Below, in pieces: positions 8,601 through 23,477 of a DNA stretch of 64,000 nt. Under the pieces are notes generated by a model. That model was not told the origin of the DNA and did no database searches. It saw nothing but the letters and a program-made list of their open reading frames with translations. Every line of letters starts with the position of its first letter. The stretch's first letter is position 1. The position numbers were made by a program, and so were the translations under genes. The stretch lies in assembly GCA_020061105.1 (NCBI GenBank), contig JAGUYW010000034.1, positions 1,173-65,172 of the forward strand, read 5' to 3'. The DNA is from Anaerolineales bacterium. Its GTDB lineage: Bacteria; Chloroflexota; Anaerolineae; Anaerolineales; UBA4823.

Positions 8601-9899
8601 TTACTGCCCCTGCAAGGTCGTCGACCCATTGACAGCCTGGATGGCTTTTAGCTGCGCCTGGCGGGCCAGGTCGATGGCTTTGGAAAGGGCGCGCAGCGCT
8701 TCGCTGGGGTTGTGAAAGCCCATGCTGTTTTCGGCGGCGATGAAGTCCCAGTACATCTGGGCGTCGCGGTGCAGCTGGCGGGCTTCGTTGAGCAATTCGG
8801 CGTTCACGTTGGGCGAGGCGGCGGCAATCTTCATGGCGTCGATGGCGTCGATCAGGGCATCCTGGGCGGCATCCATGGTCTCGCGCACCTGCTGCTGAAT
8901 AATGGCAACCCGCCCGGTGGCGAATGCCACATCGGTATGGCATTGTCCACAGGCTGCCTGGGCGTTGAGGAGCGGGCTTTGAACGTTATGGGTCGAGAAT
9001 TTGGCGGCCCCATCGCGGGTATAGGGCATATGGCAATCGGCGCACGCCACGCCAGCGTTATAGTGGGTGCTGTTTTGCGTGTAAAGTTCATACTCCGGAT
9101 GTTGGGCTTTGAGCATGGGTGTTTCTGTTTCGGGGTAGGTCCAATCCTTGAAACCTATTTCGTTGTAATATGCAATGATTTGATCGATATTTGTACCTTT
9201 GTCCCACGGGAAAGTCAGGTACTTGCCTTCGCCTGCGAAATAATATTCCACATGGCAGTTGGCGCACACGACGGTGCGCATTTCCTGGCGGGTGAAGGTG
9301 CGCCAATCTTTGCCCTGTTCTTTCAGAGCTTCTTCCAGGGCTGGGTTGGTGACGATCAATTTCATCGTTCCAGCTTCGTGGCAGTTGGCGCAGCCAATCG
9401 GCTGTTCAATCTGCTCACCCAATTCGTAAAACTTAGTCTTATAAAAATCAGTCGGCCCCATTTTATCCCACAGGCTGGGGTTATTGGCCGATTTGCAGGA
9501 ATAGCACGTCCCTGGAGTGGTTTCGTCAACACGATCAATCTCACGCACATCCTGCAGGCTGTGCATGTGGCCGCGGTCTTCATTATACTCTTTGCTAAAC
9601 GCCATGCCGGCAAACAAGACTACCAGGCGCGGGTCGTCTTCCAGCTTGGAGAAGGGAACCGAGCCGCCAAAGACGGTGCGGTTGTTGTTCGTGGCGGTCA
9701 TTTGAAAAGTGGACCACTGGTTCGGGAAATTGATGCCCCATTGTTCCGAATTGGGTTCCATCGGGGCAATCTCCACCAGCGGTTGGATGCCGCGGTCTGC
9801 GATCGGTTGGTTCTTCATAAAAATCAGCACGCTAATCAGGCTTGCTGCCAGGATTACAATAATCCCAGTCAAGATTAAGGAAGATGTTGAGATTTTCAC
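8601..9899 (-). CDS. nrfA: pentaheme cytochrome c nitrite reductase (ammonia-forming), NrfA
   Basis: 432 aa with an N-terminal signal anchor. One CXXCK site (CYSCK) plus four CXXCH sites (CANCH, CANCH, CADCH, CGQCH) in the NrfA order, including CANCHVEYYF. Confidence 0.92.
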   Translation of the reverse strand: MKISTSSLILTGIIVILAASLISVLIFMKNQPIADRGIQPLVEIAPMEPNSEQWGINFPNQWSTFQMTATNNNRTVFGGSVPFSKLEDDPRLVVLFAGMAFSKEYNEDRGHMHSLQDVREIDRVDETTPGTCYSCKSANNPSLWDKMGPTDFYKTKFYELGEQIEQPIGCANCHEAGTMKLIVTNPALEEALKEQGKDWRTFTRQEMRTVVCANCHVEYYFAGEGKYLTFPWDKGTNIDQIIAYYNEIGFKDWTYPETETPMLKAQHPEYELYTQNSTHYNAGVACADCHMPYTRDGAAKFSTHNVQSPLLNAQAACGQCHTDVAFATGRVAIIQQQVRETMDAAQDALIDAIDAMKIAAASPNVNAELLNEARQLHRDAQMYWDFIAAENSMGFHNPSEALRALSKAIDLARQAQLKAIQAVNGSTTLQGQ

Positions 9900-10387
9900 T
9901 TGTACTCCTCCGAATGTTGGTAAGGCAAAATCGAAACGCCGCGCTCACCGTGCGCTACGCTGCGATGACATTGAAAACAATAGAATTCCGAGCCATCGCT
10001 CATCGGGCCATATTCGATATTGGCAATCGTATCGGCATGACAGCGCACGCAGTTCTCCTGCACTACCTGGCGTGAGCTTTCCTTGGCGCGGATGGCGTCG
10101 GGAATTGGGCTAAAGGCAAAGGCGGTGACGTGGTGGTAGCCGGATTGAGCCTTGACAATATACTTGGGGATCAGGGCATGGGGCGTATGGCAGTCGCTGC
10201 AAACAGCCCAGTTTTTATGCGCCCCGTGATACCAGCCTTCGTAGACGGCATCCATCACGTGGCAGTTGTTGCAAGTGGTAGGGTTATTGCCCAGGTAGGC
10301 CGTAAAGTCAGTCACGTACAGCCCCACCCCCATGACAGCCAATAAGGCCATGATTCCTATGATTAGAGGTATTTTCATCCCGATCAC
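9896..10387 (-). CDS. nrfH: tetraheme NapC/NirT-family quinol dehydrogenase NrfH
   Basis: 163 aa with an N-terminal TM helix and four CXXCH sites (CNNCH, CSDCH, CVRCH, CFQCH). It has a 4-nt ATGA overlap with nrfA. Confidence 0.9.
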   Translation of the reverse strand: MIGMKIPLIIGIMALLAVMGVGLYVTDFTAYLGNNPTTCNNCHVMDAVYEGWYHGAHKNWAVCSDCHTPHALIPKYIVKAQSGYHHVTAFAFSPIPDAIRAKESSRQVVQENCVRCHADTIANIEYGPMSDGSEFYCFQCHRSVAHGERGVSILPYQHSEEYK

Positions 10388-10612: not shown

Positions 10613-11164
10613 ATGCAAACCCATGCCCCACGCCCGCTCGCCAGCTCAGATTTCGACGCCGCCGACCTGCTGGCGCGCGCCCGCCGCCTGGATCGCAACG
10701 CCATGGGTATTCTGCACGACCTGCATTACCCCGAAATTTACCGCTACGCCGCCTACCGCCTGGATGACCCGGCAACCTGCGAAGAAATCGCCGCCCAGGT
10801 GTTCATCCACTTCTTGGAGGCCTTACGGAAACGGCGCACCCCGCGCGCCAACCTGCCTGCCTGGCTGCTGGATAGCGCTGCAAAACTGGTAGACCAGTAT
10901 TTACAGCGCAACGCAAAACAAAACCCGCCAGCCAGCGCAGCGCTGCCATTACCGCAGAACGAGGCCGAGCGCCAACGCCGAAATTTCTACCTGGCTTTGC
11001 GCGCCTTGCCTCCCCAACAGCAGCATTTCCTGGCTTTGCGCTTTAGCGGGCCGCGTAGCATAAGCGAAACAGCCTTCCTGATGGGCCAATCTGAGGAGCG
11101 CCTGCGTCTGCTGCAGCAGCGCGCCCTGAGAGAACTGCTCAAACAACTGGGGAAAACCATATGA
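10613..11164 (+). CDS. ECF-type RNA polymerase sigma factor
   Basis: 183 aa. The region 2-like stretch is LHDLHYPEIYRYAAYRL...AAQVFIHFLEAL. The region 4 HTH is LPPQQQHFLALRFSGPRSISETAFLMGQSEERLRLLQQRALRELLKQL. Confidence 0.85.
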   Translation: MQTHAPRPLASSDFDAADLLARARRLDRNAMGILHDLHYPEIYRYAAYRLDDPATCEEIAAQVFIHFLEALRKRRTPRANLPAWLLDSAAKLVDQYLQRNAKQNPPASAALPLPQNEAERQRRNFYLALRALPPQQQHFLALRFSGPRSISETAFLMGQSEERLRLLQQRALRELLKQLGKTI

Positions 11165-12045
11165 GGTTGAAACGGCGCAGCGATCCAAAAGCCCGCGCTC
11201 TCGAAACCTGCCTGCAAGGCATCCAGGGCGGTATGGGGGTGGAACGGGTGCTTTCCGCCTATCCGCGCTGGGCTGACGAACTGCGCCCGCTGCTGTGGAC
11301 TGCCAGTATGGCTGGCGCGCATAACGCCGAGCTTGAAATTCCACAGACGGCGCAGCAGCACAGCCAGGCCGCTTTTTTGCAAATCTCACAGCGTATGCTG
11401 CCGGCGCCAGAACGGCCTTTCTTGCGCTCGATCCTGCGCTTGCTGTTGGTGGTTGCCATCCTGGCCGGTGTATTGGTTACCGCAGCGATCGGGATGCAGC
11501 GCAGCTCGGCTGCTGCCCTGCCCGGAGAAGCGCTCTACTCCGTCAAATTGGCCATCGAACGGTTAGCGCTGGCCTGGCCGAGCAGCCCGGCATACTCGCT
11601 GGCTTTGCAACTGGCGCAGGATGAAGAACGATTGCTCGAACTGCAAATCTTGCGCCAGCGCGCCCAAGAAGCCCAGATCAGCTTCAGCGGGGTGCTCGAA
11701 AGCATGCAAGGCGACCAATGGCTAGTCGGCGGGACGCCCGTGATGATCACCGGTAACAGTCAAATCATCGGCGATATGGAGATTGGCTTTTATATCGTCG
11801 TACAGGGAGAACTGCAAAGCGATGGGCAGATTACGGCGCAGCGCTTGCAAATGCGCGAATATGTGGTGCAGGGCAGGATCGAAAGTATCAGCGGAGAGGC
11901 GCTCTTGCTGGAAGACCAAATCATCAGCCTGAGCTTGCAGACCCTGGTGCAGGGCTTGCCTGAACCCGGCAGCCGGGGGCGCGTTATTTTACGACGCGCC
12001 CAGGATGGTCGGTTTATCGCCCGGTTGGTAGAAATCCTGCCCTAG
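11161..12045 (+). CDS. putative anti-sigma factor / membrane protein with DUF5667- and DUF5666-like extracytoplasmic region
   Basis: 294 aa. It has an ATGA overlap with the sigma gene, a single TM helix (LLLVVAILAGVLVTAAIG), LPGEALYSVKLAIERL, and a C-terminal beta-rich repeat (WLVGGTPVMITGNSQI...). Confidence 0.55.
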   Translation: MRLKRRSDPKARALETCLQGIQGGMGVERVLSAYPRWADELRPLLWTASMAGAHNAELEIPQTAQQHSQAAFLQISQRMLPAPERPFLRSILRLLLVVAILAGVLVTAAIGMQRSSAAALPGEALYSVKLAIERLALAWPSSPAYSLALQLAQDEERLLELQILRQRAQEAQISFSGVLESMQGDQWLVGGTPVMITGNSQIIGDMEIGFYIVVQGELQSDGQITAQRLQMREYVVQGRIESISGEALLLEDQIISLSLQTLVQGLPEPGSRGRVILRRAQDGRFIARLVEILP

Positions 12046-12049
12046 CCGG

Positions 12050-13384
12050 CTACTCCAGGTCGATCTCTACAAAAGCCGTCATCCCCCAATAGACCTGCGC
12101 AGCCTCTGCTTGTAAAGACAGCGTCACCGGATAGGTAACATTGCCGCGCCGGTCTTCGCCGAGATAGCCGATTTGGACGATCTGGCCTGCGAAAACCCGC
12201 CCGGGGAAGGCGTCCAGGCTGATGCGCGCCGGCATCCCAATCTTCAAATGTACAATATCAGCTTCCGCCAGGTCGATGGTCTCCACCTGCCATTGTGTCA
12301 GATCCGCCAGGACGATCAGCGGCGTTCCCGGCGCAATCACTTCGCCTGCTTCCACATTCACCTGTACGATCACGCCATCGAACTCAGCTGCCAGCGTGGC
12401 CTGCTTCAAAGCCACCTGGGCAGTCTCCACTGCCGCTTGCGCCTGGAGCACCGCCGCCTGGGCCTGTTCGACAGCGTCTTGAGCAGCGCGCACCTGAAAG
12501 GAGCGCTCGCCGGTCTGTAAAGCCGCCAGGCGATCCTGGCTGACGTCATAGATCTCCTGCGCAATAGCGGCTTGCGCCCGCGCTTCCAACACATCCTGGG
12601 CAGCCTGGGTGGTCAAAATCTGGTCATAGTAAGCCTGGGCGGCTTGCAATTCGTTCTTCGCCCAATCGTAGTTCTTCTGAGCCTGGTCGCGCAAGATTCG
12701 ATCGGGTGAGGCTTTGGACTGTTCCCAGACCTGCCGGGCTGCCAGAAAAGCTGCCTGGGCTTGCGCCAGGCGCCGCTCAGCCGCCAACAAATCGGCGCTG
12801 GAAGCCTTTCGCAGCACTTCGTTCAAATTATCGTTCGCCAGTTGCAATTCTGCGCTGGCATTTTCCAGGGCAGCCTGGGCAGCGGCGTACTCTTGCTCGG
12901 AGTCGAAATACCAGACCGGTTGCTCGATTTCGCTGGGCGGCCTGGCGCGCCAACGTGTGCTGCGCGCCTGGGCCTCAGCGGCATGCGCCGCAGTTTGCGC
13001 CATCTCGAATTGGGTCTCGGCGGTCTGTAAAGTGGCCTGGGCAGCCTGCAAGGCAGCCTCGGCCTGCTTGAGAGCGGCGCGCAAGCTTTCGCTTTCTTGC
13101 CTGGCCAGCGCTTCGCCGCGCCGCACAGCCTGCCCAGTGCTAACCAGCACTTCGGCTACTCGCCCACCCTGCACAAAACTTAATAACGCCTGGCGCGCTG
13201 GCTTTACCTTGGCTTCCGCCGATACCAGCTGCAGGTGATTTTCCTGCAGGCCGTTGGGCGCCGGGGGCGTGGTAGACTCCGGAACCGGCGCCAGAAAAGA
13301 CCAATACCCCCACAAGCCCAAGGCGGAAAGCCCGGCTACGATCAAAATGCTGAGCACAATTTTTAGACTACGGTTCATAGCCAC
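12050..13384 (-). CDS. HlyD-family membrane fusion (periplasmic adaptor) protein
   Basis: 444 aa. Shows an N-terminal TM anchor, a long A/Q-rich coiled-coil hairpin, and C-terminal beta-barrel motifs (PGTPLIVLADL, ARISLDAFPG). Confidence 0.8.
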   Translation of the reverse strand: MAMNRSLKIVLSILIVAGLSALGLWGYWSFLAPVPESTTPPAPNGLQENHLQLVSAEAKVKPARQALLSFVQGGRVAEVLVSTGQAVRRGEALARQESESLRAALKQAEAALQAAQATLQTAETQFEMAQTAAHAAEAQARSTRWRARPPSEIEQPVWYFDSEQEYAAAQAALENASAELQLANDNLNEVLRKASSADLLAAERRLAQAQAAFLAARQVWEQSKASPDRILRDQAQKNYDWAKNELQAAQAYYDQILTTQAAQDVLEARAQAAIAQEIYDVSQDRLAALQTGERSFQVRAAQDAVEQAQAAVLQAQAAVETAQVALKQATLAAEFDGVIVQVNVEAGEVIAPGTPLIVLADLTQWQVETIDLAEADIVHLKIGMPARISLDAFPGRVFAGQIVQIGYLGEDRRGNVTYPVTLSLQAEAAQVYWGMTAFVEIDLE

Positions 13385-13401
13385 AATTCTCTTTCTTTTT
13401 T

Positions 13402-16017
13402 TTATTCATGCTTGATGGCTTCGACAATATTCACCGCCGCCGCCCGCCGCGCCGGCAAAAGCGCAGCCAGCTGCACCACCACTACAGCAATTACCGCGCC
13501 GGTCAAAAATGGCGTAGCAGTGAACTGGAAAGTCAGGTCATATCCGATCATCATATTGGCGCCGCGAATGAGCACATTGGCGATCACAAACCCGACCACC
13601 AGCCCATACACACCGCCCATCGCTCCCAAAGCCAGGGCCTCGGCCAATACCATGCGCAGCACCTGGCTGCGCGTCATTCCCAGAGAGCGCAAACCGCCGA
13701 TCTCGCGCTGGCGCTCGAGCACATTCATCGTCAGGGTGTTGATCACGCCGAGCACCCCAATAATCACGCCAATCAGGCTGAGCACATCGAACAAACGAAA
13801 AGACTGGTCCATCAAATCCAGAATGCTGCGCTTGAACGACTCGCTGGTTTGAACGCTGATCTGGCGGCTGGCCTGGAAACGTTCGACCACCTGGTCGGCG
13901 ATGTCTTGAGCAGTGTAACCCGGAGCGACCTTCAGCGTAAAACGATCAACCCCCTGGCGAGCAAACCAGCGCTGCATGTCCTCGTAGCTGCCATACACGC
14001 TTTGCCCCAGGCCGCCAAAATCGATCACCACCGCGGCTACGCTAAAAGCCTTTTCGCCGCGGTTGGTAAGCAGAACAATTTCATCGCCCTGGCCCAGTTG
14101 GTACACATCTGCCACGCTGGTAGAGATGAAGAGCGCTCCGCCTTGCTGGAAACGCTGCCAGTTGGCCTGGGCGTCTCCCTGGTTGGCGGCGAATAACATG
14201 TCGCCGACCAGGCGAAACGTGGGTGGGTCGATGGCGGTGAAATAAAATTCCTGGCTGGCGTTCGAACGGGCGGCCAGCATGCCGGGCGCAGCCCGCACCG
14301 TCAACGTGCGCGCCGGCGTAACCGCCTGGACGCCGGGCATAGCAAGCAACTGGCGCCCGAACGATTCGCGCATCGGCAAGGCCGAGCGCACAAACAGATC
14401 GCCGCCCAGGGCGTTTTCCAGCCAATTGGTCATATCCTGTTCAAATGAATACGCCAGCGAGGCAATGCTGACGATCATGGTTAGCGACACCATCAGCGAA
14501 GCAACCGTCAATGTCGACCTGCCTACCGAGCGGTGGATATTGCTGGACCCGATCATGCCCTCGTTCCCGTACAGGCCGGTCGCCAACGGGCGCGCCACAG
14601 GTTCCAGCCAACCCGCCACCAGTGGCACCGTCAGCGTTGCGCCCAGGAAGATACTGACCAGGGCGATATTGCCCGCCAGGAAGATGACTTCGTCGCGCCA
14701 CTGCAAGCCGTAGATCACCGCCAGCCCAACGCCAAATAAGACCAACCCGCTAAACCACACCAGCGGGCGAATTTGCTCGCCGCTGCGCCCGCTGATTCGC
14801 AGCGCATCCAGGGGCGAAATGCGCGCCGCCTGCGCGCCTGGCAGGGCGGCCGCCAGTAACGTAACACCCACCCCGACCGCCAGGCTGTACAGCAGCCCTT
14901 CCAGCGGTACACTCAGGTAGCCCTGTTTTGCCGTAACGGCGTCGCCCAACAGCCAGATCAGACCGCGGGCGATCACGATCCCGACCCCCAGGCCGAGCGT
15001 CGAGCCAGCCAATGAGAGTAAGAGCGCTTCGGCCAACACCATATTAAGCACATTCTGCCGGTTCATACCGATCGCCCGCAGCATACCAATTTCACGGGTA
15101 CGTTCGACGATGGTCATCGAAAAGGCATTGTAGATTAGAAACGCTCCGACAAAAATTGCAATCAATGAAAAAAAGGTCAGGCCTAACTGGTAAGTAGCTA
15201 ACATCTGGCTGACAAGTTGGCCGCGACCGGCCGGGTAAAGCACCTGCGCTTCGCCTTGCAAACGCTCATCCAGGAGCAAGCGTAAATTTTCCAACTGCTC
15301 CGGCGCTTCGCTGATCTGGCGATCGACTTGCAATGCGATCTCATCCAGTTCATCACCGCGCCCGAATAGATCTTGCACTACTTCGAGTGGCGCAAACGCC
15401 GCTGCGCCGTCATTGATCAAAGAGACGCCTTGCTCGTTCAATAATCCCACAATCTTCAGGCGCACCAGGCCATCTGGAACTAAGAACACCAGGTGATCCA
15501 ACAACTTCAAGCCATTCTCTTCAGCATAATTGAGTGGGATGACCACTTCATACTTATCATAGTCGGGCATGCGCCCGCTGGTCAGTTCATAGACGCGCAC
15601 TTGCTGATCTACTAGCGGATCGACGCCATACACTTGCAGCAGGTTGCCAGCCGCCACGCCAGTCATGCTGAAGGCAATTTGCCACGAACCGGCCTGGCTG
15701 GCCAGCAAAGTGAACTGGCGCACCATCGGAGCGGCGCTTTGAACACCAGGCGCTTTTTCCAGGCGCTCCAAAAAGTCCACCTGGAAAGCCGGGTCGCCGG
15801 CGCTCAGCGGCGTCACCACCAGGTTGGCGCCCCCGGTCGCCCGGTCAAATACTTGGCGCAGCGAATCCAAAGTGGTCTGGTTGGTGATCTGGATCGCCAA
15901 AACTACCGCCACGCCGAGCACGATCCCCAACAGCGTCAGGGCGGTGCGCCCACGCCGGGCTTTCATGTTGCGGCGCGCCAGGAAAAATGGCGCAGTAAAA
16001 GAAGCCAGCCAACCCAT
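13402..16017 (-). CDS. ABC transporter permease with two FtsX/MacB-type domains
   Basis: 871 aa. The FtsX signature is duplicated (ERTREIGMLRAIGM and ERQREIGGLRSLGM), each preceded by a large extracytoplasmic domain. Confidence 0.85.
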   Translation of the reverse strand: MGWLASFTAPFFLARRNMKARRGRTALTLLGIVLGVAVVLAIQITNQTTLDSLRQVFDRATGGANLVVTPLSAGDPAFQVDFLERLEKAPGVQSAAPMVRQFTLLASQAGSWQIAFSMTGVAAGNLLQVYGVDPLVDQQVRVYELTSGRMPDYDKYEVVIPLNYAEENGLKLLDHLVFLVPDGLVRLKIVGLLNEQGVSLINDGAAAFAPLEVVQDLFGRGDELDEIALQVDRQISEAPEQLENLRLLLDERLQGEAQVLYPAGRGQLVSQMLATYQLGLTFFSLIAIFVGAFLIYNAFSMTIVERTREIGMLRAIGMNRQNVLNMVLAEALLLSLAGSTLGLGVGIVIARGLIWLLGDAVTAKQGYLSVPLEGLLYSLAVGVGVTLLAAALPGAQAARISPLDALRISGRSGEQIRPLVWFSGLVLFGVGLAVIYGLQWRDEVIFLAGNIALVSIFLGATLTVPLVAGWLEPVARPLATGLYGNEGMIGSSNIHRSVGRSTLTVASLMVSLTMIVSIASLAYSFEQDMTNWLENALGGDLFVRSALPMRESFGRQLLAMPGVQAVTPARTLTVRAAPGMLAARSNASQEFYFTAIDPPTFRLVGDMLFAANQGDAQANWQRFQQGGALFISTSVADVYQLGQGDEIVLLTNRGEKAFSVAAVVIDFGGLGQSVYGSYEDMQRWFARQGVDRFTLKVAPGYTAQDIADQVVERFQASRQISVQTSESFKRSILDLMDQSFRLFDVLSLIGVIIGVLGVINTLTMNVLERQREIGGLRSLGMTRSQVLRMVLAEALALGAMGGVYGLVVGFVIANVLIRGANMMIGYDLTFQFTATPFLTGAVIAVVVVQLAALLPARRAAAVNIVEAIKHE

Positions 16018-16040
16018 TCGCTTGCTCTCCAGGTTATCTC

Positions 16041-16781
16041 TTACAAGTCAATGGCAGACATCACGGCCGTGATGTCTTGAACCGCCACCCCATGGCCTTC
16101 TCCATCCAACTGACGGACAATCCGGCCATCTTTCAAAAAAACAATCCGGTTGGTGTAAGAAGCCGCCCGGGCATCATGCGTTACCATCACAATGGTGGCA
16201 GAAAACTCCCGGCACGTCTGGCGCAAGAGGTCCAGGATCGCCGCTCCGGAACGCGAGTCCAGGTTGCCGGTTGGCTCATCAGCCAGGACAATCTCCGGCT
16301 GGTTGACAAACGCCCGGGCAATCGCCACGCGCTGCTGCTGGCCGCCGGAAAGCTGGTCTGGGCGGTGATCAGAACGCTCTGCCAGCCCGACCAGCGCCAG
16401 CAATTGATCGATCTGCTCACGCTTCGCTGCCAGGGGTTGCCCATCGATCAATAAAGGCAAGGCCACGTTTTCAGCGGCGGTCAGAGTGGGCAGCAGGTTA
16501 TAAAATTGAAAAATAAAACCCACTTTGCGGCGTCGCAAACGGGTGATCTCTTCATCATTCAAACCGGAAAGGGCTTCGCCGTTCAAAAAAATCTCGCCCG
16601 AGGTTGGCGTATCCAGGCCACCCAAGAGATGCAGCAAGGTGGATTTTCCTGAACCGGAGGGCCCCATGATAGCCGTGAATTCGCCGCGCCCAATGGAAAA
16701 ATCAACCCCAGCCAGGGCATCGACAACCACTTTGCCCATCAGGTATTGCTTCGTCAATTGGTGGGTTTCGAGCACAACCAT
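16041..16781 (-). CDS. ABC transporter ATP-binding protein (MacB/LolD-like)
   Basis: 246 aa. Shows Walker [10 protein letters not shown], the signature LSGGQQQR, Walker [12 protein letters not shown], and the H-loop VTHD. Confidence 0.92.
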   Translation of the reverse strand: MVVLETHQLTKQYLMGKVVVDALAGVDFSIGRGEFTAIMGPSGSGKSTLLHLLGGLDTPTSGEIFLNGEALSGLNDEEITRLRRRKVGFIFQFYNLLPTLTAAENVALPLLIDGQPLAAKREQIDQLLALVGLAERSDHRPDQLSGGQQQRVAIARAFVNQPEIVLADEPTGNLDSRSGAAILDLLRQTCREFSATIVMVTHDARAASYTNRIVFLKDGRIVRQLDGEGHGVAVQDITAVMSAIDL

Positions 16782-16785
16782 TTTT

Positions 16786-17526
16786 TCAGGTTAACGGTAT
16801 TCCCATGATTTGCTGCGCCAGGTTTTGGAAAGCCTGTTCTACCCCCGTGCCCGTTTTGGCGCTGGTAGTGAACCAGCTTGCGCCAGTTTGCTCGGCCAAA
16901 TCAGCCAGGCGCTGCGGCGAGATTTCGCAATGTTCTTGCAGGTCTTCTTTATTGCCGGCAATCACAATGGCAACCTGCGGAGAAACTTTGCGTAAACGTT
17001 GGACATAGGTTGATATCGAAGCCAGAGTGGCGCGGCGCGTCAGGTCGCACACCAGCAAAGCCCCACTGGCGCCCTGTAAATAACTGGCCTGCGCCCCAGA
17101 GAACTCTTCGCTGCCCGCCAGATCCCATAACAGCATGTTGAAAACGGGCAAATCTGGCAGATTAATTGACCGGCGCGAAATCTTTACCCCGATCGTGCTG
17201 AGATAGCGGTCATCGAACTGCCCTTCGACAAATCGACGCGTCAGGCTGGTTTTGCCAACTGCAAAATCTCCCAACATGCAAATTTTCTTTTGGATCACAG
17301 TGCTTAGATCACTCAAGGCGTCTCTCGCTTTTTTGAGCCATCGCTCAAGGTCAATCAATCTAGAGTATAATGCGATTATACCAGTAGGAAGCAAGCATTC
17401 TCCTGTCATACCCAGAACAACACTGGGCAATCCGTTCACAATACATCTATAGGCATCCCCAATGGAGGTAGACATGAGCGAGGGGACATCATCGACGATC
17501 AACGAGCTGGAGCGTTTACGAGACAT
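16786..17526 (-). CDS. Ras-superfamily (Rab-like) small GTPase; N-terminal boundary uncertain
   Basis: G1 GDFAVGKT, G2 STIGV, G3 WDLAGSEEF, G4 GNKED, G5 TSAKTG. The stop lies 4 nt before the ABC ATPase start. Possible starts are 17526, 17409, 17316 (TTG) and 17298 (GTG). Confidence 0.8.
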   Translation of the reverse strand: MSRKRSSSLIVDDVPSLMSTSIGDAYRCIVNGLPSVVLGMTGECLLPTGIIALYSRLIDLERWLKKARDALSDLSTVIQKKICMLGDFAVGKTSLTRRFVEGQFDDRYLSTIGVKISRRSINLPDLPVFNMLLWDLAGSEEFSGAQASYLQGASGALLVCDLTRRATLASISTYVQRLRKVSPQVAIVIAGNKEDLQEHCEISPQRLADLAEQTGASWFTTSAKTGTGVEQAFQNLAQQIMGIPLT

Positions 17527-18028
17527 TCTCTATGGCGAGCAAGCCCGCGTCACCCAATCTCGCCTGGACGAACTGGAACAGAACCTGGAAAACGTCCGGC
17601 GAGCGCTTCTCAACTCCCTGGAAGACAAAGTCAAGCAACTCTCCGACCAACTGTCTGAACAAAACGCTCGCCTGGAACAGCGCCTGGATGATCAACGCGC
17701 CCAATTGACCCAGCAAGGCCAAAATGGTTTAAGAAATCTGAACCAAACTCTGGATGGGCAGGTGCTTTTGCTACAAACTGGCATCAACACATTACAACAA
17801 GAATTGCACCAGGAGATCAAAACGCGCTATGCCCAACAATCCGAGAGCCTGCAAAACGCCAAGAAGGCTCTACAAGCCCAGATGGAGCAGCAGCACCAGA
17901 ACCTTAGCCAACAACTGCGCCAGGCAGCAGAAGCGCTCGAACAAAACAAAGTTTCACGCCTCGAACTCGGCCAGGCGCTGATCGCCCTCGGCAACCAGTT
18001 ACAAGAACAGCCAGACCAAGAATCCTGA
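17474..18028 (+). CDS. Q/L/E-rich coiled-coil protein, function unknown
   Basis: 184 aa counted from ATG 17474 (SD GGAGG at 17464-17468). It is heptad-like throughout (ELERLRDILYGEQARVTQSRLDELEQNLENV...). Confidence 0.6.
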   Translation: MSEGTSSTINELERLRDILYGEQARVTQSRLDELEQNLENVRRALLNSLEDKVKQLSDQLSEQNARLEQRLDDQRAQLTQQGQNGLRNLNQTLDGQVLLLQTGINTLQQELHQEIKTRYAQQSESLQNAKKALQAQMEQQHQNLSQQLRQAAEALEQNKVSRLELGQALIALGNQLQEQPDQES

Positions 18029-18037
18029 TCAACAGGT

Positions 18038-19606
18038 ATGGATCACCTTAAGCCAACCGGCAACGACCCGCTTCAGGATATTCGCGCTATCTTGTTGACG
18101 GAGCTTGAAGAACAGTTCCGGCTGCTCGAAGAACGCCTGGCGGCTTTGCAACAACACAACCAGAGCAGCGAGCAAGAACAACAAGCCCAATGGCAAGCCA
18201 TCCGCCAGCAACTTCAGGCCATCCAACGCCTGGCAGAAGAAAAAGAGCGCGCCCTGCAAAGCAGCCTGGATGACCTGGAGCAGCGCGCCCTGACCGATCC
18301 CGAGAAGATCACCAACCGGCTGACGCCAATGATGACCAATCTGATCCGGCGCACGATCGTCGAATCGCCCGAGGAGATGGCGGAGGCGATTGGCCCGGTG
18401 ATGGGCGAGGCGGTACGGGTGCAAATTCGCGATTCGCGCCAGGGGATGATCGACGCCCTGTACCCGATCATCGGTCAAACTGTGCAGAGGGCGATCTCCG
18501 AATTCGCTCGCGAACTACAGCGCAACATCGACGCCCGCCTGAAATCCACCTTCGGTCCGCAAGGATTACTGCGCACTCTGAGCGCCCGTTTGCGGGGCGT
18601 GTCGGCGGGTGAACTGGCGCTGCGCGACGCCATGCCGTTCCAAATCAGCGAAATCTTTCTGATCCAGCAAAATACCGGGCTGCTGATGGCCCACATCCGC
18701 CCGGGCAGCGAGGAACTGACCAGCCCCGACCTGGTCAGTTCCATGCTCACCGCCATTCGCAGCTTTATTCAGGATGCATTTGGGCAAGAGCAGGGCAAAG
18801 AATTGGATGAAATCCAATACGGCGATGAGAGCATCATCATTTACGGTGGAAAACACACCTATGTGGCGGTTGCAATCAAAGGCGTCGAACCGGAGGGCTT
18901 GCGCAACCAATTGCGCGAATTGGTTTCAGAGCTGCACATCCGTTTTGGCAATGCCTTGCGAGATTATGACGGCAGCCCTGACAGCCTGCCCAACGTACAG
19001 CCGCCGGTCCAACAATTCATTGATTCAATCACTGGCGCAAGCGCCCAAGCGCCCCAAAAAATCCCCGCTCAGCAGCGCCTGATCCTGGCTGCTGGTTCAT
19101 TCCTGCTCCTGCTGATCCTGGCGGGCGGCTGTTTTTCATTGGTTTTCGCGTCCCGCTTATGGCCGGTGGCCTTCCCAGGCCCGAGCGCCGCCCCCAGCGC
19201 CAGCGCCACCCTCACGCCAACTGCCCCCCCTACTGCCACCCTGACACCTACCCCCACCGCCACATTTACAGCCACGCCAACCTCAACCTTCACCCCGACC
19301 GCAGTCGCAACCAACACCCCCACTTCCAGCCCCAGCCCAGGCCCCACCATCACTGCTACCCCTCACTTTGTATCGGGCTATATCATCGGCGATGTGTGGG
19401 CGCGCACCCAACCCAGCGAACTATCTCCCAGGCATAGCATCCTGTTCGTCAACACCCCGGTAAAAATCCTGGCAGTATTTGGTTATTGGGTACAAGTCGA
19501 GTGGATCAACGTCGATGGCCCGCAGCAGGCCTGGATTCTGGCGCGCTGGGTGGTCCCGCTGGAATCGATACCGGCATATTTAATCACCCCAACCCCCAGC
19601 CCATAA
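18038..19606 (+). CDS. single-pass membrane protein: coiled coil / conserved alpha region / longin-roadblock-like region / TM / PT-rich linker / SH3b-like domain
   Basis: 522 aa. Shows ISEIFLIQQNTGLLMAHI...VSSMLTAIRSFIQDAFG...YVAVAIKG, the TM helix LILAAGSFLLLLILAGGCFSLVFA, a TPT repeat linker, and a C-terminal GYIIGDVWARTQP...VKILAVFGYWVQVEW. Confidence 0.65.
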   Translation: MDHLKPTGNDPLQDIRAILLTELEEQFRLLEERLAALQQHNQSSEQEQQAQWQAIRQQLQAIQRLAEEKERALQSSLDDLEQRALTDPEKITNRLTPMMTNLIRRTIVESPEEMAEAIGPVMGEAVRVQIRDSRQGMIDALYPIIGQTVQRAISEFARELQRNIDARLKSTFGPQGLLRTLSARLRGVSAGELALRDAMPFQISEIFLIQQNTGLLMAHIRPGSEELTSPDLVSSMLTAIRSFIQDAFGQEQGKELDEIQYGDESIIIYGGKHTYVAVAIKGVEPEGLRNQLRELVSELHIRFGNALRDYDGSPDSLPNVQPPVQQFIDSITGASAQAPQKIPAQQRLILAAGSFLLLLILAGGCFSLVFASRLWPVAFPGPSAAPSASATLTPTAPPTATLTPTPTATFTATPTSTFTPTAVATNTPTSSPSPGPTITATPHFVSGYIIGDVWARTQPSELSPRHSILFVNTPVKILAVFGYWVQVEWINVDGPQQAWILARWVVPLESIPAYLITPTPSP

Positions 19607-19629
19607 ACGACTGCAATTTAATAAACACA

Positions 19630-19667
19630 GCGCGCTTCAGGCAATGACGAACCTGCCTGAAGCGCGC
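19630..19667. terminator. 14-bp perfect hairpin between convergent genes (likely terminator, mainly for moeZ)
   Basis: GCGCGCTTCAGGCA (19630-19643) / TGCCTGAAGCGCGC (19654-19667). A T-rich tract is present only on the reverse-strand side. Confidence 0.55.
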
Positions 19668-19683
19668 CAGAAATACCAGCCGC

Positions 19684-20853
19684 TTAGTAGATTGGCAAGC
19701 TGGGGTCAACCTCGCTCGCCCAGGCGTTGATGCCGCCCTTCAGATTCTTCACCTTGCGAAAGCCAGCGCTTACCAACAATTCCAGCGCTCGGGCCGAGCG
19801 CGTTCCAGATTTACAGAAAACAACCATCTCCTTGGCGCTGTCCAGCTCCGACAGGCGCGAGGCCAGCTGCCCCAACGGCACCAACTGGGCGCCCGACAGT
19901 TGGGAAATTTGCAGCTCATGCGGCTCGCGCACGTCCAACAAGGTGATTGAATTGCCTTCTTGCAAGCGCTGAGCTAGCTGGCTCACCTGAATATCCCATT
20001 CACCGCCTGCCGAGCCATCCTCATGGTCGCGCCCAGGCACACCACAGAAGGCGTCATAATCGATCAGTTCGACCACCTCGGGCTTCTCGCCGCACACCTT
20101 GCAGTTGGGGTTTTTACGCAGCTTGACAAACTCAAACGACATATCCAGGGCGTTATAGAGCAAGAGTTTTCCAATCAGCGGCTCGCCAATCCCCAGGATC
20201 ACCTTGAGCGCCTCGGTGGCTTGCAGCGTGCCAATCGTGCCAGGCAAAACACCTAAGACGCCTCCTTCGGCGCAGGACGGCACCAACCCAGGCGGCGGCG
20301 GCTCTGGGAAGAGGCAGCGGTAACACGGTCCTCTTTGGGCGTCGAATACGCTCACCTGGCCGTCGAAGCGAAAGATCGAGCCATATACATTCGGCTTACC
20401 CGTTAATACGCACAGGTCGTTCGTCAGGTAGCGGGTTGGGAAATTGTCGGTCCCATCAATAATCAAATCATAACTCGCGGCGATCTCCCGAGCATTGGCG
20501 GAAGTGAAAGGCTCGTTATAAACTTCCACCTGGATGTCGGGGTTCAGATCGAGCATACGGGCACGCGCCGATTCGACTTTTAACACACCTAACGTGGATA
20601 CGCCATGGATGACCTGGCGTTGTAAATTTGAGCGATCTACCACATCGAAATCTACCAGGCCAATCCGACCAACGCCTGCCGCCGCCAGGTAGAGCGCTAC
20701 CGGCGAACCCAACCCACCTGTCCCAACCACCAGGATCGAGGCCGCTTTGAGCTTGCGCTGTCCATCCAGGCCGACCTCTGGAATTAGCAGGTGGCGCGAG
20801 TAACGCATAATTTCTTCGTGCGAAAGCGCTGGCAGCATTTCAGCCTCCCGCAA
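19684..20853 (-). CDS. moeZ: MoeB/ThiF-type adenylyltransferase fused to rhodanese (MoeZ-like sulfur-carrier activating enzyme)
   Basis: 389 aa. Shows GTGGLGSP in the nucleotide fold, CxxC pairs (CYRC, CKVC), and a C-terminal rhodanese domain with the active-site loop FCKSGTRS. Confidence 0.9.
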   Translation of the reverse strand: MREAEMLPALSHEEIMRYSRHLLIPEVGLDGQRKLKAASILVVGTGGLGSPVALYLAAAGVGRIGLVDFDVVDRSNLQRQVIHGVSTLGVLKVESARARMLDLNPDIQVEVYNEPFTSANAREIAASYDLIIDGTDNFPTRYLTNDLCVLTGKPNVYGSIFRFDGQVSVFDAQRGPCYRCLFPEPPPPGLVPSCAEGGVLGVLPGTIGTLQATEALKVILGIGEPLIGKLLLYNALDMSFEFVKLRKNPNCKVCGEKPEVVELIDYDAFCGVPGRDHEDGSAGGEWDIQVSQLAQRLQEGNSITLLDVREPHELQISQLSGAQLVPLGQLASRLSELDSAKEMVVFCKSGTRSARALELLVSAGFRKVKNLKGGINAWASEVDPSLPIY

Positions 20854-21112
20854 TGCTGGGGATCAACAGCACCCGGTCATCCGTTTTGAGGGGCGTTTGC
20901 AGGCCTTGCAAATCTTTAACATTTTCCTCGCCCAGGAAAAGATTGACAAAAGGTCGCAGGCTGCCCTGGTCGTTGACCAGATGCGGTTTCAGGGCCGGGT
21001 ATTGCAGCAGCAGATCATCCATCAATTCAGCCACGGTCTGACCTTGCAGGGCAAGTTCACTCTGCCCGGCTGTATAAGCCCGCAGCGGCGTTGGGACGCG
21101 TAAAGTTGGCAT
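20840..21112 (-). CDS. cysO: MoaD/ThiS-family sulfur carrier protein, CysO-like
   Basis: 90 aa ending in IAGG (C-terminal Gly-Gly). It has FVNLFLGEENV like CysO, and overlaps moeZ by 14 nt. Confidence 0.8.
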   Translation of the reverse strand: MPTLRVPTPLRAYTAGQSELALQGQTVAELMDDLLLQYPALKPHLVNDQGSLRPFVNLFLGEENVKDLQGLQTPLKTDDRVLLIPSIAGG

Positions 21113-21124
21113 ACAGATAACTCC

Positions 21125-21547
21125 TTAGAAAATTTCCGATAGTTGTTGCATCAGTTTCTCGGCCGTTGTCACGCCATGGTTGATGTGGCGTGGGCGGCCG
21201 TTGGCATCGATCAAAAACGTGGTGGGAACGCTCATCACGCCCCACTCCTGGGCTGTGTGCGGGTCGCCGGCAGCGTCGATCTCGACCACCTGTAAGCGTT
21301 CACCCAGCACATCCTGCAAGCGACGAATAGCCGGGCGCTGAACAGTTTTGCAAGGCGCGCAGGTCGGCGTAGTAAAGTATACCAGAGCAGGCTTACCCGG
21401 TTGAAAAGCTGCCAGGTTGCGCACTTTGCTACTCGCCCGCGTTAAAACCAGGCGATTTGCCAACCCAAACAGGATCAGACCAGCCGCGATCACTGCCGCC
21501 GCCCAGAAGAAGCGCGCCAACATTTCATTGCCCAAGATATCAGGCAT
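21125..21547 (-). CDS. membrane-anchored thioredoxin-like protein
   Basis: 140 aa. Shows an N-terminal TM helix, the CxxC motif TPTCAPCK, and the cis-Pro region MSVPTTFL. Confidence 0.8.
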   Translation of the reverse strand: MPDILGNEMLARFFWAAAVIAAGLILFGLANRLVLTRASSKVRNLAAFQPGKPALVYFTTPTCAPCKTVQRPAIRRLQDVLGERLQVVEIDAAGDPHTAQEWGVMSVPTTFLIDANGRPRHINHGVTTAEKLMQQLSEIF

Positions 21548-22040
21548 CGAACACCTTCGTATCTGGGCGCATGCCCGGGAAAGCGCCGCCCGGCGGCGTC
21601 TGGGTAAAGCCCGGCGCTTTCAATCGCGCCAGCCAATAATACAGCATGCAGCCAACGCAAAAGCCAGCCAGGGCGTTCAACGCTGCCAGCCCTGCTACTA
21701 ACCACACCAGCCCCCAGCCCAATAGCGGCGTTCCTGCCAGCAAAGCTATGCTGCCCAGCGCCATAAACAGCCCCCCCAGAGCCTGTGCGAAACGGTGCGG
21801 CTGCGGGTGATCGAGCAAAATAACCGGCTTGACGATCCCAGCTGGCTTCAAGATAGCCTGGTAGAGCAATCCAAACCCCGGTTTACCTAAAAGCGCCCCC
21901 AGCAGCATAACCAGCGTGGTCAACATCACCAGGCCCGGTGCGTTCAACACAAAAGCCAGGATATTCAAGCCAATGATGACCAGTTGGTTAACCTTGAGTG
22001 ACGAATGATCAATTTTTCTGAGTTGTTCTTGGTTGTCCAT
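21540..22040 (-). CDS. DUF4395-like integral membrane protein
   Basis: 166 aa counted from ATG 22040 (MDNQEQLRKIDHSSLKVNQL...), with 4 hydrophobic helices and CVGC near the C-terminus. The ORF-track start at 22214 would overlap mec and is rejected. Confidence 0.65.
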   Translation of the reverse strand: MDNQEQLRKIDHSSLKVNQLVIIGLNILAFVLNAPGLVMLTTLVMLLGALLGKPGFGLLYQAILKPAGIVKPVILLDHPQPHRFAQALGGLFMALGSIALLAGTPLLGWGLVWLVAGLAALNALAGFCVGCMLYYWLARLKAPGFTQTPPGGAFPGMRPDTKVFDA

Positions 22041-22054
22041 AACATTTTTCTCGC

Positions 22055-22513
22055 TTATCGATCGAGATTTGCAATCAGCGCCTGCTCGGGCGTAATCACA
22101 AGCTCTTCTTCGATGAACTGCGTGCGTTCTTCGCTCAAAAGCCAGCAGCGGCTTTCCACTGCCTGTCCGGAATACACGCTGGTGATGATATAGGAAAGAA
22201 AGGGTAAAGCCCATTCACGGTCGAATTCCGATGGTGAATTGGGATGGTCCGGATGGGAGTGAAATACTCCCAGAACATCCAACCCCAATCGAGCGGCTTG
22301 CAACTCGCCCTGCAGGTAATCCTCTGCTGTTAACAAATAGCGGTTGTGCCGAGCAGTTTGTTCGCGGGAATTTTCGAAAGCCATGATCATGGTCACACGC
22401 TTCTCCTGCGCGCCAAGACTACCCAATAACAGGCCGGCCCCTTCTTCCGGGTAACTGGCCTGGCCATGGGCGTGAATTTGGGACAGAATATCGGGTGAAA
22501 TTCGCACAGTCAT
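22055..22513 (-). CDS. mec: JAMM/MPN+ metalloprotease, Mec-like (CysO-cysteine hydrolase)
   Basis: 152 aa. Shows EEGAG and the JAMM motif HSHPDHPNSPSEFD. Confidence 0.85.
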   Translation of the reverse strand: MTVRISPDILSQIHAHGQASYPEEGAGLLLGSLGAQEKRVTMIMAFENSREQTARHNRYLLTAEDYLQGELQAARLGLDVLGVFHSHPDHPNSPSEFDREWALPFLSYIITSVYSGQAVESRCWLLSEERTQFIEEELVITPEQALIANLDR

Positions 22514-22523
22514 ATTCGCCTCG

Positions 22524-23477
22524 TCAATCTGCCTGCCACAAGTCTTTATCGCTCAAGTACTTATATCCAGCGTCTGGGAAGACGGTGACCACCAGCCCGC
22601 TTTCTAATTCCTGGGCCAACTTCAAAGCTGCCACGGCTGCCGCACCGGCCGAAATGCCCACAAACAAACCTTCCTGGCGCGCCAGCCGGCGCACCATGGC
22701 ATAAGCTTCTTCGGTGGACACTTCAAGCGTGCGATCTGGGATGGTCTCATCAAAAATTCCGGGCTTAAGGGCAGTCGGTAAGTGCTTCAAACCTTCCAGG
22801 CCGTGAAAAGGGCCATCCGGTTGAACCGCTGCCAGCTGAATATGCGGGTTATAAGCCTTCAAATAGCGGCCAACTCCGGTCAGCGTGCCCGTAGTGCCCA
22901 ACCCGGCGACGAAATGCGTCACACAGCCGCCGGTCTGCTGCACAATCTCCGGCCCGGTAGTCAGGTAATGGGCCTGCCAATTGGCCGGGTTCTCATATTG
23001 CCGGGCATAGTAATAGCGCTCAGGATGCTCCGCAGCTAAACGGCGGGCTACCAGAATAGCGCCATCTGAACCTTCCAAAGGATCGGTCAAGATCAGTTCT
23101 GCTCCCAAAGCGCGCAGGATGCTGATGCGTTCTGGGCTGGCAATGGCTGGCAAGGCCAATGTCACCGGCACGCCGAGCGCCGCCCCAAAGGTAGCATAGG
23201 AGATGCCCATATTTCCAGAAGTGGAGTCGAGCAAGCGCTTCCCACCAGCCAACGCCCCTTCAGCCAAAGCTGCGCGCAAGATACTCAACGCCGGGCGATC
23301 TTTGATGGAGCCGCCTGGGTTGAACCATTCCGCTTTGGCAAACACCTGCACTCCGGCAGGTAAATCAGCCCCAATGCGTTCCAACGGCAGCAGAGGTGTG
23401 TTGCCCACCGCGGCCTGTAAACCGCCAATCGCCGGGGCTGCCACCTGAATATCGGATACTGTTAGCATGTCCATCAA
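22524..23477 (-). CDS. cysM: PLP-dependent cysteine synthase, CysM/CysK family
   Basis: 317 aa. Shows the PLP lysine motif NPGGSIKDRPA, TSGNMG, and the GTTGTLTG loop. The start is more likely ATG 23474 (SD AGGAG 9 nt upstream). Confidence 0.88.
   Translation of the reverse strand: MMDMLTVSDIQVAAPAIGGLQAAVGNTPLLPLERIGADLPAGVQVFAKAEWFNPGGSIKDRPALSILRAALAEGALAGGKRLLDSTSGNMGISYATFGAALGVPVTLALPAIASPERISILRALGAELILTDPLEGSDGAILVARRLAAEHPERYYYARQYENPANWQAHYLTTGPEIVQQTGGCVTHFVAGLGTTGTLTGVGRYLKAYNPHIQLAAVQPDGPFHGLEGLKHLPTALKPGIFDETIPDRTLEVSTEEAYAMVRRLARQEGLFVGISAGAAAVAALKLAQELESGLVVTVFPDAGYKYLSDKDLWQAD

Follow-up and report, generated by a model that had tools for sequence, protein, structure and literature searches.

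Group 1 Rup proteins are the bacterial proteins closest to the eukaryotic Rab and Ras GTPases, and the group was defined computationally by Wuichet & Sogaard-Andersen (2014, Genome Biol Evol 7:57; PMC4316618). Its members are Ras/Rab-like, lack the glutamine of the G3 motif and occur in Bacteroidetes, Chloroflexi, Cyanobacteria and Proteobacteria; their partners are a coiled-coil protein (DUFY), a protein with an unassigned domain, one transmembrane (TM) helix and often a C-terminal OmpA domain (DUFX), and an output protein with a common N-terminal domain (PMC4316618). The Chloroflexi members are given there (Table S2) in the order Rup > DUFY > DUFX, without OmpA, and none of 121 Rup genes is coupled to MglB. 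Entries of that table include Nostoc punctiforme Npun_F1891, Chloroflexus aurantiacus Caur_1236, Anabaena and Flavobacterium. The same authors suggested that an invariant Gln of the output proteins is the catalytic supply for Rup and proposed the actinobacterial conservon as a functional analogy; no experimental study of a Group 1 Rup system is recorded (PMC4316618). Our literature searches found the phrase 'Group 1 Rup' in that paper only, and no paper that joins a longin domain with a prokaryotic Rup and Rab; a 2024 paper still treats roadblock/longin proteins as chiefly archaeal, with sporadic occurrence in bacteria. Here we analyse a stretch of 64,000 nucleotides (nt) from an Anaerolineales bacterium (contig JAGUYW010000034.1; hereafter the window), in which a Group 1 Rup system stands next to a MacB-type exporter. 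The DUFX of this system is predicted to contain a longin-type fold, and the Rup genes and the exporter are probably two independent units that happen to lie side by side.

On sequence grounds, the GTPase of the window is a Rup, the adjacent coiled-coil protein is DUFY and a membrane protein of 522 amino acids (aa) is DUFX. As in the described systems, there is a Rab/Ras-like GTPase of about 170 aa without the G3 Gln, a coiled-coil protein encoded beside it, and a membrane partner that combines a conserved domain in the cytoplasm, one TM helix and, at its C-terminus, a wall-binding domain; the hosts listed in 2014 include Chloroflexi, and in relatives of the window a fourth gene encodes a histidine kinase or cyclic-nucleotide enzyme with the common N-terminal domain. 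A Roseiflexus sp. contig (L071) has a DUFX match at 38% identity (E 9e-65) and the order GTPase > DUFY > DUFX, which equals that listed for R. castenholzii Rcas_3601. The window nevertheless represents a variant of the known system. Its wall-binding domain is an SH3b domain behind a Pro/Thr-rich (PT) linker rather than OmpA; it has no output gene at the locus or in the 64 kb; its rup gene points away from DUFY-DUFX and leads into the operon of a MacB-type exporter, so that an exporter occupies the output slot; and the DUFX domain, unassigned in PMC4316618, is here longin/roadblock-like by prediction. An earlier note on this DNA, made from the letters alone, knew of no characterised coupling of this kind; the neighbourhood of GTPase, coiled-coil protein and membrane protein had already been described as Group 1 Rup in 2014.

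Results and Discussion

The Rup module and its usual output

All six open reading frames (ORFs) of the earlier note were recovered from the window sequence, and domain matches bear out the order that it gave: a GTPase, an ATP-binding cassette (ABC) ATPase, a double-FtsX permease and a HlyD adaptor on the minus strand, with a divergent pair of genes on the plus strand. The GTPase gene itself stands, but its start at 17526 does not. The 246-aa ORF at 16786-17526 matches the Ras family (PF00071, E 6e-39, Pfam search) and is over-extended, its homologues being 160-180 aa long and starting ..S(T)VIQKKICMLGDFAVGKTS. Alignment with these homologues puts the start at TTG 17316, a column common to loci L085 (TTG) and L086 (GTG), with GTG 17298 as an alternative, and the rup gene (16786-17316, minus strand) then encodes a Rab-like small GTPase of the Group 1 Rup type with 176 aa. 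Its motifs are GDFAVGKT (G1), YLSTIG (switch I), WDLAGS (G3, within WDLAGSEEF), NKED (G4) and TSAK (G5). The G3 Asp is present, Ser stands at the position of the catalytic Gln and Phe at that of Ras Gly12, and the C-terminus (...QQIMGIPLT) has no Cys and hence no prenylatable motif. In 64 linked GTPases, the 12 commonest G3 motifs have S, G or D after DxxG, never Q, and the 8 commonest G1 motifs have F or Y at the Ras Gly12 position. The closest solved sequence relatives of Rup are Rab21 (E 1.9e-28), Rab14, Rab2A and a Thorarchaeota Rab. Because Ser replaces the catalytic Gln and Phe occupies the Gly12 position, Rup should hydrolyse GTP poorly when alone and should need catalytic residues from a partner.

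The divergent pair consists of DUFY (17462-18028, plus strand; 188 aa, or 184 aa from ATG 17474) and DUFX (18038-19606, plus strand). DUFY is a cytoplasmic protein of the helical coiled-coil type for which the domain search returned a weak apolipoprotein-like match only. DUFX is a bitopic membrane protein, and homologues, alignments and an AlphaFold2 model identify it as the conserved partner of rup. We fetched 80 DUFX-anchored loci (1.27 Mb), of which 79 come from Chloroflexota metagenome-assembled genomes (MAGs), mostly Anaerolineae, and one (L049) from a MAG labelled Cellvibrionaceae. Of these 80 species-level loci, 70 have a GTPase gene no more than 3.5 kb from the DUFX homologue: directly downstream and co-directional in 59, divergent as in the window in 7, and upstream and co-directional in 4. 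Of the nine loci that lack one, five break off no more than 350 nt from the DUFX gene. A DUFY homologue is found directly upstream of DUFX in most loci (blastp cluster, n=67). The GTPase, DUFY and DUFX form a strongly conserved module, and to this extent the six-gene module of the earlier note holds. The DUFX family is also large, with more than 700 homologues in a sequence search and a DUFX relative encoded by at least 583 of 600 pattern-matching stretches in a species-representative genome collection.

Clustering of the neighbour proteins gives a canonical order of (OmpR-type response regulator) > DUFY > DUFX > rup > output. In 55 of the 64 loci of the first set examined, a PAS-like output gene comes next after rup (median gap -4 nt), and among 124 related GTPase genes the next gene on the same strand is a PAS-like output in 102 and an ABC ATPase in only 4. 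The output proteins have in common a weakly PAS-like N-terminal domain (a weak PAS_4 match), which is about 130 aa long and ends in a Q.RNELRL helix; the remainder is modular, this domain being fused to a HisKA/HATPase kinase, a class III nucleotidyl cyclase (Guanylate_cyc), a GGDEF domain, or GAF plus HD-GYP domains. The usual Rup output gene is missing from the window, both at the locus and across the 64 kb, where a hidden Markov model (HMM) of the output N-terminal domain found no credible match (the best being a multi-PAS sensor at 58565-61987, E 0.0047).

We also note some variation in the arrangement of these genes. Two GTPase > output pairs follow DUFX in tandem in L055 and L074, so that the pair of switch and output is duplicated behind one membrane partner, and in L083 two outputs, a GGDEF protein and a cyclase, flank a single rup. 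The locus from the MAG labelled Cellvibrionaceae (L049) has a typical Chloroflexota-type order, DUFY > DUFX > rup > output, for which a binning error or horizontal transfer is possible. Elsewhere in the window, a phosphorelay cluster on the minus strand (52523-63999) encodes a hybrid kinase of 1562 aa (several PAS, GAF, HisKA/HATPase, two receivers and Hpt), a double-receiver protein, a short kinase and a 1130-aa sensor with seven TM helices, dCache and multiple PAS domains, the last of which is the only, weak, match to the HMM of the Rup-output N-terminus.

The exporter and its linkage to rup

The exporter proper begins with the ABC ATPase gene (16041-16781, minus strand; 246 aa, MacB/LolD type), whose product matches ABC_tran and is nearest to ATPases of the LolD/MacB/FtsE/DevA type. 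It continues, as judged by domain matches, with a fused double permease of 871 aa, 2 x (MacB_PCD + FtsX), at 13402-16017 and a HlyD/YknX-type membrane-fusion adaptor of 444 aa (HlyD/RND_mfp) at 12050-13384, both on the minus strand. All component scores fall under the equivalog cut-offs, so that no specific orthologue (LolCDE, MacB, DevCBA or FtsEX) can be named; the permease has more than 1400 homologues at E <= 1e-50, and the orthologues of the adaptor in L086 and L167 have YknX-type Pfam matches. In its LolD/MacB-like ATPase, its FtsX and MacB periplasmic core domains and its HlyD/YknX-type adaptor the set resembles the MacAB-TolC and YknXYZ-type (type VII ABC) exporters, but its permease is a fused duplicate separate from the ATPase, and a small GTPase gene stands in front of it, an arrangement that does not characterise exporters of this family. 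Among the genes at 9-23 kb of the window we found no TolC-like outer-membrane duct, though no search was aimed at one. Chloroflexota are usually considered single-membraned, as in the YknXYZ case.

The stop codon of rup (TGA, 16786-16788) is followed by AAAA and then by the ATG of the ATPase gene at 16781, a gap of 4 nt, and neither a terminator scan nor the sequence reveals a terminator-like site at this junction, in agreement with the earlier note; over the window as a whole the scan barely exceeds shuffled expectation (18 sites found against 11.4 +/- 3.7 expected). The control region that the note had put at about 60-170 nt spans 145-157 nt between rup and DUFY with the corrected GTPase start (17317 to 17461 or 17473). 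It contains a palindrome, TATAAT-gcg-ATTATA (17366-17380), that provides a -10 box on either strand, back to back: TATAAT at 17366-17371 on the plus strand faces DUFY/DUFX, and TGgTATAAT at 17383-17375 on the minus strand is an extended -10 facing rup, so that the paired boxes occupy 17366-17383, each being a consensus match only. A sigma-70 promoter scan gave no match in the control region, and the extended -10 was spotted by eye and by its conservation: TGGTATAATC..ATTATACT is kept in L084 and in L085, where the intergenic DNA has otherwise diverged and the GTPase is 70% identical. The palindrome may be a compact bidirectional promoter or operator. At the other end, a GC-rich hairpin of 17 bp between the convergent DUFX and MoeB genes (19628-19669; terminator scan and sequence) is likely a bidirectional terminator that closes the DUFY-DUFX transcription unit. 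Given a gap of 4 nt, too short to hold a promoter, and the conserved extended -10 before rup, the rup and exporter genes are probably co-transcribed from the rup promoter. None of the RNA runs searched contains the window sequence; three metatranscriptomes from a study with partly matching DNA runs match only the universal ABC signature/Walker B stretch (16295-16367), through unrelated genes.

The junction of rup with an ABC ATPase gene occurs in four loci, namely the window, L084, L085 and L086. L084 is a near-identical strain, with an ATPase 100% identical over 151 aa and a gap of 3 nt between rup and the ATPase gene. In L085 the GTPase and ATPase are 70% and 80% identical to those of the window, the gap is 119 nt and the cyclase output is gone; L081 and L085 are probably one organism, both having a DUFY of 269 aa and neighbouring sample accessions. 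In L086 the GTPase is 64% identical and the ATPase, permease and adaptor 76/69/54% identical, the gap is 7 nt and the cyclase output is retained. A reading of the junction as a strain-level matter, drawn from L084, was dropped since L085 and L086 extend it to three species-level lineages.

Two further loci separate the exporter from Rup. L082 has the order NrfA < NrfH < ECF > anti-sigma > rup < / cyclase > DUFY > DUFX > MoeB < ThiS <, where ECF denotes an extracytoplasmic function sigma factor gene; it is collinear with the window on both flanks (NrfA is 73% identical, against 74% in L086), its rup lies beside the anti-sigma gene and it has no exporter. L167 has the order ThiS > MoeB > ABC > FtsX2 > HlyD > < anti-sigma < ECF, NrfH > NrfA >, in the same syntenic block. 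The ATPase, permease and adaptor of its exporter are 75/66/55% identical to those of the window, much as in L086, and tblastn found no GTPase, DUFY or DUFX there. In L168, L169 and the JGI contig with P0245 (permease 63-65% identical), likewise, the fetched or listed flanks contain no Rup gene. Orthologues of the ATPase in L085, L086, L167, L168 and L169 are 74-80% identical to that of the window. Conversely, a MacB-type ATPase at 45% identity or more occurs in only 3 of the 80 DUFX-anchored loci, in none of them behind rup, a frequency that by our own estimate, not a computed expectation, is about that to be expected by chance for a transporter family as common as this one.

The exporter belongs to a conserved block of NrfHA, ECF sigma factor, anti-sigma, exporter and MoeB genes. 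We consider it likely that there are two independent units here, a Rup core (rup, DUFY and DUFX) and an ordinary MacB-type (type VII ABC) exporter, and it is as separate units that they show a double dissociation within one collinear block, with Rup but no exporter in L082 and an exporter but no Rup in L167. In the sub-clade of the window the Rup genes sit between MoeB and the exporter, and because of this only 3-7 nt (119 nt in L085) separate the end of rup from the ATPase gene. Co-expression of rup and the exporter is best explained as transcriptional hitch-hiking that results from local genome history; control of the exporter by the GTPase is not indicated, and the linkage should not be taken as evidence of GTPase-gated export. 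Exporter synteny, which the earlier note had named beforehand as the check that could refute its proposal, is not conserved: an ABC ATPase follows only 4 of 124 related GTPase genes, and L082 and L167 part the two units. Membership of the exporter in the module, and its control by the GTPase, are thus the parts of the six-gene proposal that did not hold.

It is possible, if rather less probable, that the exporter is under the control of the adjacent ECF sigma/anti-sigma pair as an envelope-stress detoxification unit, with rup merely lying in its leader region. In the window the pair consists of an ECF sigma factor gene (10613-11164, plus strand) and a gene for a DUF5667/DUF5666 anti-sigma-like protein (11161-12045, plus strand), context genes outside the Rup module, of which the latter is convergent on the adaptor gene with the two stop codons 4 nt apart. 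Such a pair adjoins the exporter orthologues in the window, L086, L167 and L169, with or without Rup, and it accompanies the exporter more often than Rup does, though not always. L082 keeps the pair without the exporter, the pair is missing beside the exporters of L168 and the P0245 contig, and between rup and the ATPase gene of the window there is no room for an ECF promoter. Control by the sigma factor would in any case be compatible with two independent units and is no strict alternative to them.

A predicted longin-type domain in DUFX

We think that the predicted fold of DUFX is the most useful new point to emerge from this locus, since it suggests a testable mechanism, a wall-tethered platform for a Rab-like switch. 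DUFX has no Pfam or NCBIfam match, even at E <= 1; a precomputed PF27998 assignment on three of its homologues was not reproduced by our Pfam search. AlphaFold2, run with an alignment of 70 sequences, gave a full-length model with a mean predicted local distance difference test (pLDDT) score of 76.7, in which long cytoplasmic N-terminal helices are followed by an alpha/beta domain, a TM helix, a disordered PT linker and a beta-barrel. The earlier note had arrived at much the same architecture (a cytoplasmic coiled coil and domain, a PT linker and SH3b), and its guesses of a longin-like and an SH3b-like domain find support in the model and in the Foldseek comparisons.

The alpha/beta domain (aa 190-308; 18605-18961, plus strand) has the order alpha-beta-beta-alpha-beta-beta-beta-alpha in both the full-length and the domain-only model, as assigned by DSSP, with a pLDDT mostly above 90; the domain-only model (aa 170-340) has a predicted template-modelling (pTM) score of 0.72. 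Both models have the topology of the longin superfold, beta-beta-alpha-beta-beta-beta-alpha(-alpha) with a five-stranded antiparallel sheet. The best Foldseek match in the PDB is the longin domain of Sec22b (1ifq_B; template-modelling score 0.76 on the target and 0.59 on the query, root-mean-square deviation (rmsd) 2.9 A, 129 columns), and all 41 PDB hits of the domain-only model at E <= 1e-3 are longin or roadblock proteins, from families that include AP sigma, zeta-COP, TRAPP, Mon1-Ccz1, the C-terminal domains of Rag proteins, LAMTOR and Ego3; Ykt6 matches as well. MglB comes below these 41 (E 1.4e-3; 1j3w_C, template-modelling score 0.50 on the target). With the full-length model the top 50 hits are essentially all longin or roadblock proteins (Rag/Gtr C-terminal domains, AP sigma subunits, TRAPP Bet5/Trs23, Mon1-Ccz1, LAMTOR, Sec22b, MglB). 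DUFX aa 190-308 is thus predicted to adopt a longin/roadblock-type fold.

Beyond this domain, the model shows a single hydrophobic TM helix (aa 344-378; 19067-19171), in which C365, F366 and F370 are conserved, and a beta-barrel (aa 445-507; 19370-19558; pLDDT about 95), joined by the extracytoplasmic PT linker evident in the sequence (aa 383-440; 19184-19357; pLDDT below 50), all on the plus strand. Foldseek matches the barrel to an SH3b-containing peptidase (3npf_B, rmsd 1.6 A over 67 columns), PF08239 is precomputed on the DUFX homologues P0134, P0155, P0156, P0162, P0180 and P0208, and the NCBI name is 'SH3 domain-containing protein'. From the model, this SH3b-like barrel is likely a cell-wall-binding domain.

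Within the DUFX family, invariance is highest outside the longin domain, in two helical repeats at aa 95-170 (18320-18547, plus strand), ...MAEAxGPVMGEAxRVQIRDSR... and ...DALYPIIGxTVQRA..., with the family consensus AEAxGPxMGEAxRVQIRDS / ALYPxIGxTVQRA. The invariant alignment columns are P97, A115, E116, G119, P120, R127, V128, R131, R134, A140, P143, G146, V149 and Q150. The repeats are modelled as helix with low confidence (pLDDT 53-66), and one homologue, P0240, has several additional tandem copies.

A Rab-like switch and its membrane partner

The arrangement of these parts suggests how the system might work. DUFX would be held in the membrane by its one helix, with the PT linker and the SH3b wall-binding domain outside and the coiled coil, the two invariant helical repeats and the longin-type domain inside the cell. 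By analogy with MglB, Rag-Ragulator, Mon1-Ccz1 and TRAPP, we infer that the longin domain could be a platform that recruits Rup at the membrane, and that a cue from the envelope or wall, received through the SH3b, PT and TM segments, might set the nucleotide state, location or release of Rup. In relatives of the window, Rup-GTP would then presumably act on the kinase or cyclic-nucleotide enzyme encoded downstream, at its PAS-like N-terminus. If Rup takes its catalytic residues from a partner, the invariant Arg and Gln residues of the DUFX helical repeats may be another candidate source beside the Gln of the output. It is from the analogy with these systems that both the binding of the GTPase to the longin domain and the direction of signalling are proposed.

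How far this analogy extends differs from system to system. In MglA-MglB of Myxococcus xanthus and Thermus thermophilus, too, a Ras-superfamily GTPase gene lies beside a gene for a protein of the roadblock/longin superfold, which is in that case its regulator. Rup, however, has the G3 Asp that is absent from MglA and by its motifs belongs to the Rup clade rather than the MglA clade; there is no MglB-like gene in the locus, the partner being a 522-aa membrane protein and not a small soluble dimer; and the DUFX domain matches longin proteins better than roadblock proteins. The actinobacterial conservon (CvnA-D / MfpA-D) likewise combines a membrane sensor, a roadblock-fold protein and a small GTPase in a multi-gene unit, but with an MglA group 2 GTPase, the histidine kinase sensor CvnA and a DUF742 protein, none of which is found in the window locus. 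The eukaryotic pairs of Rabs with longin guanine nucleotide exchange factors (GEFs; Mon1-Ccz1, TRAPP and DENN) and Rag-Ragulator are similar in that the nearest solved relatives of the GTPase are Rabs, in that the DUFX domain superposes on Mon1/Ccz1 (template-modelling score about 0.5), TRAPP Bet5/Trs23, LAMTOR and the Rag C-terminal domains, and, for Ragulator, in that the platform is membrane-anchored. Rup differs from the eukaryotic Rabs in having no prenylation Cys, no catalytic Gln and an aromatic residue at the Gly12 position, and DUFX has a TM helix of its own as anchor and extends to the cell wall; the likeness of its domain to the eukaryotic ones is one of fold and may be due to convergence.

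The prediction nonetheless bears on the origin of the partnership between Rabs and longin proteins, for which Rup offers a testable bacterial counterpart. A further-reaching idea goes beyond the platform role to hold that pairs of a Rab-like GTPase and a membrane-anchored longin protein, as its true nucleotide-state regulator or platform, are a widespread bacterial invention, homologous and not just analogous to the eukaryotic pairs of Rab and longin GEF; taken as a whole, we regard this as improbable. Were it so, then, given an earlier proposal that Rab, Ras, Rho and Ran derive from Group 1 Rup by horizontal transfer, both the switch and its regulator would have passed into eukaryotes jointly, from bacteria and not from archaea.

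Alternatively, the alpha/beta domain of DUFX could be a sensor of a small molecule or protein, of the PAS/GAF/profilin-like class, with Rup docking instead on, for instance, the repeats at aa 95-170 or DUFY. The layout of beta-sheet and helices is similar in longin, roadblock, GAF and PAS folds, conservation is stronger in the helical repeats than in the alpha/beta domain, and the low-confidence model of the repeats is what would be expected of a segment that folds on a partner. The domain also has no sequence-level tie to longin or roadblock families; searched against PDB sequences, the DUFX family profile returned only noise from the PT linker and apolipoprotein-like coiled coils, with no longin or roadblock link. 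We think a sensor unlikely all the same, as the top 41 hits of the domain-only model and the top 50 of the full-length model are essentially all longin or roadblock proteins, mostly partners of small GTPases, with no PAS or GAF sensor among them, and as the coupling of the DUFX gene to a small GTPase gene is near-universal in the family. For the predicted longin-type domain, recruitment of Rup is thus the role that we prefer.

The exporter as a substitute output: an unlikely reading

The same module could in principle include the exporter, as the earlier note had it: wall-contacting DUFX would set Rup, and Rup-GTP would switch an exporter that has replaced the output in this sub-clade. Certain findings pull against our account of two separate units and the longin-type partner. 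The longin assignment comes from predicted structure, with no sequence profile to back it. The junction of rup with the ABC genes is not a one-off, being found also in L081/L085 and L086, which are clearly different organisms, and so persists across three species-level lineages; the gap is tight in three of the four loci (4 nt in the window, 3 nt in L084 and 7 nt in L086), which resembles operon integration; the exporter sits in the exact slot that is taken by an output gene in 102 of 124 relatives; and the cyclase output kept by L082, L083 and L086 has been lost in the window and L085, which leaves the exporter as the only nearby candidate effector, with no other output gene within the 64 kb of the window.

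Against a switched exporter stand the double dissociation of L082 (Rup only) and L167 (exporter only) in one syntenic block and the lack of a Rup gene in the fetched or listed flanks of four further loci with exporter orthologues. L086, moreover, retains its cyclase output beside the exporter. All recognised outputs have the PAS-like N-terminal domain in common, and the ATPase has no space for one, because residues 3-222 of its 246 cover the 221-position LolD-type model end to end. Since functionally unrelated flanks (NrfHA and MoeB-ThiS) are equally conserved, the junction persists no better than the synteny around it. That all six genes work as one functional module is a reading that we think unlikely, and we retain that of a Rup core with an ordinary exporter beside it.

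Neighbouring genes

The genes on either side of the exporter and the Rup module belong to recognisable functions of their own. Genes for a cytochrome c nitrite reductase of the NrfA/NrfH type lie at 8601-10387 of the window, in the conserved block that flanks the exporter (Cytochrom_C552 and Cytochrom_NNT in the orthologues of L082 and L086). On the other side, 19684-23477 holds a string of MoeB/ThiF-rhodanese, ThiS, thioredoxin, DUF4395, Prok-JAB and PALP genes that is conserved in L081 and L082 and resembles cysteine biosynthesis by a sulfur carrier (CysO/CysM/Mec-type). We note that the DUF4395 ORF in this string (21540-22214) overlaps the JAB gene (22055-22513) by about 160 nt and that its start is probably over-called; its Pfam domain does not begin until aa 68, and L081 and L082 have homologues of 161-164 aa.

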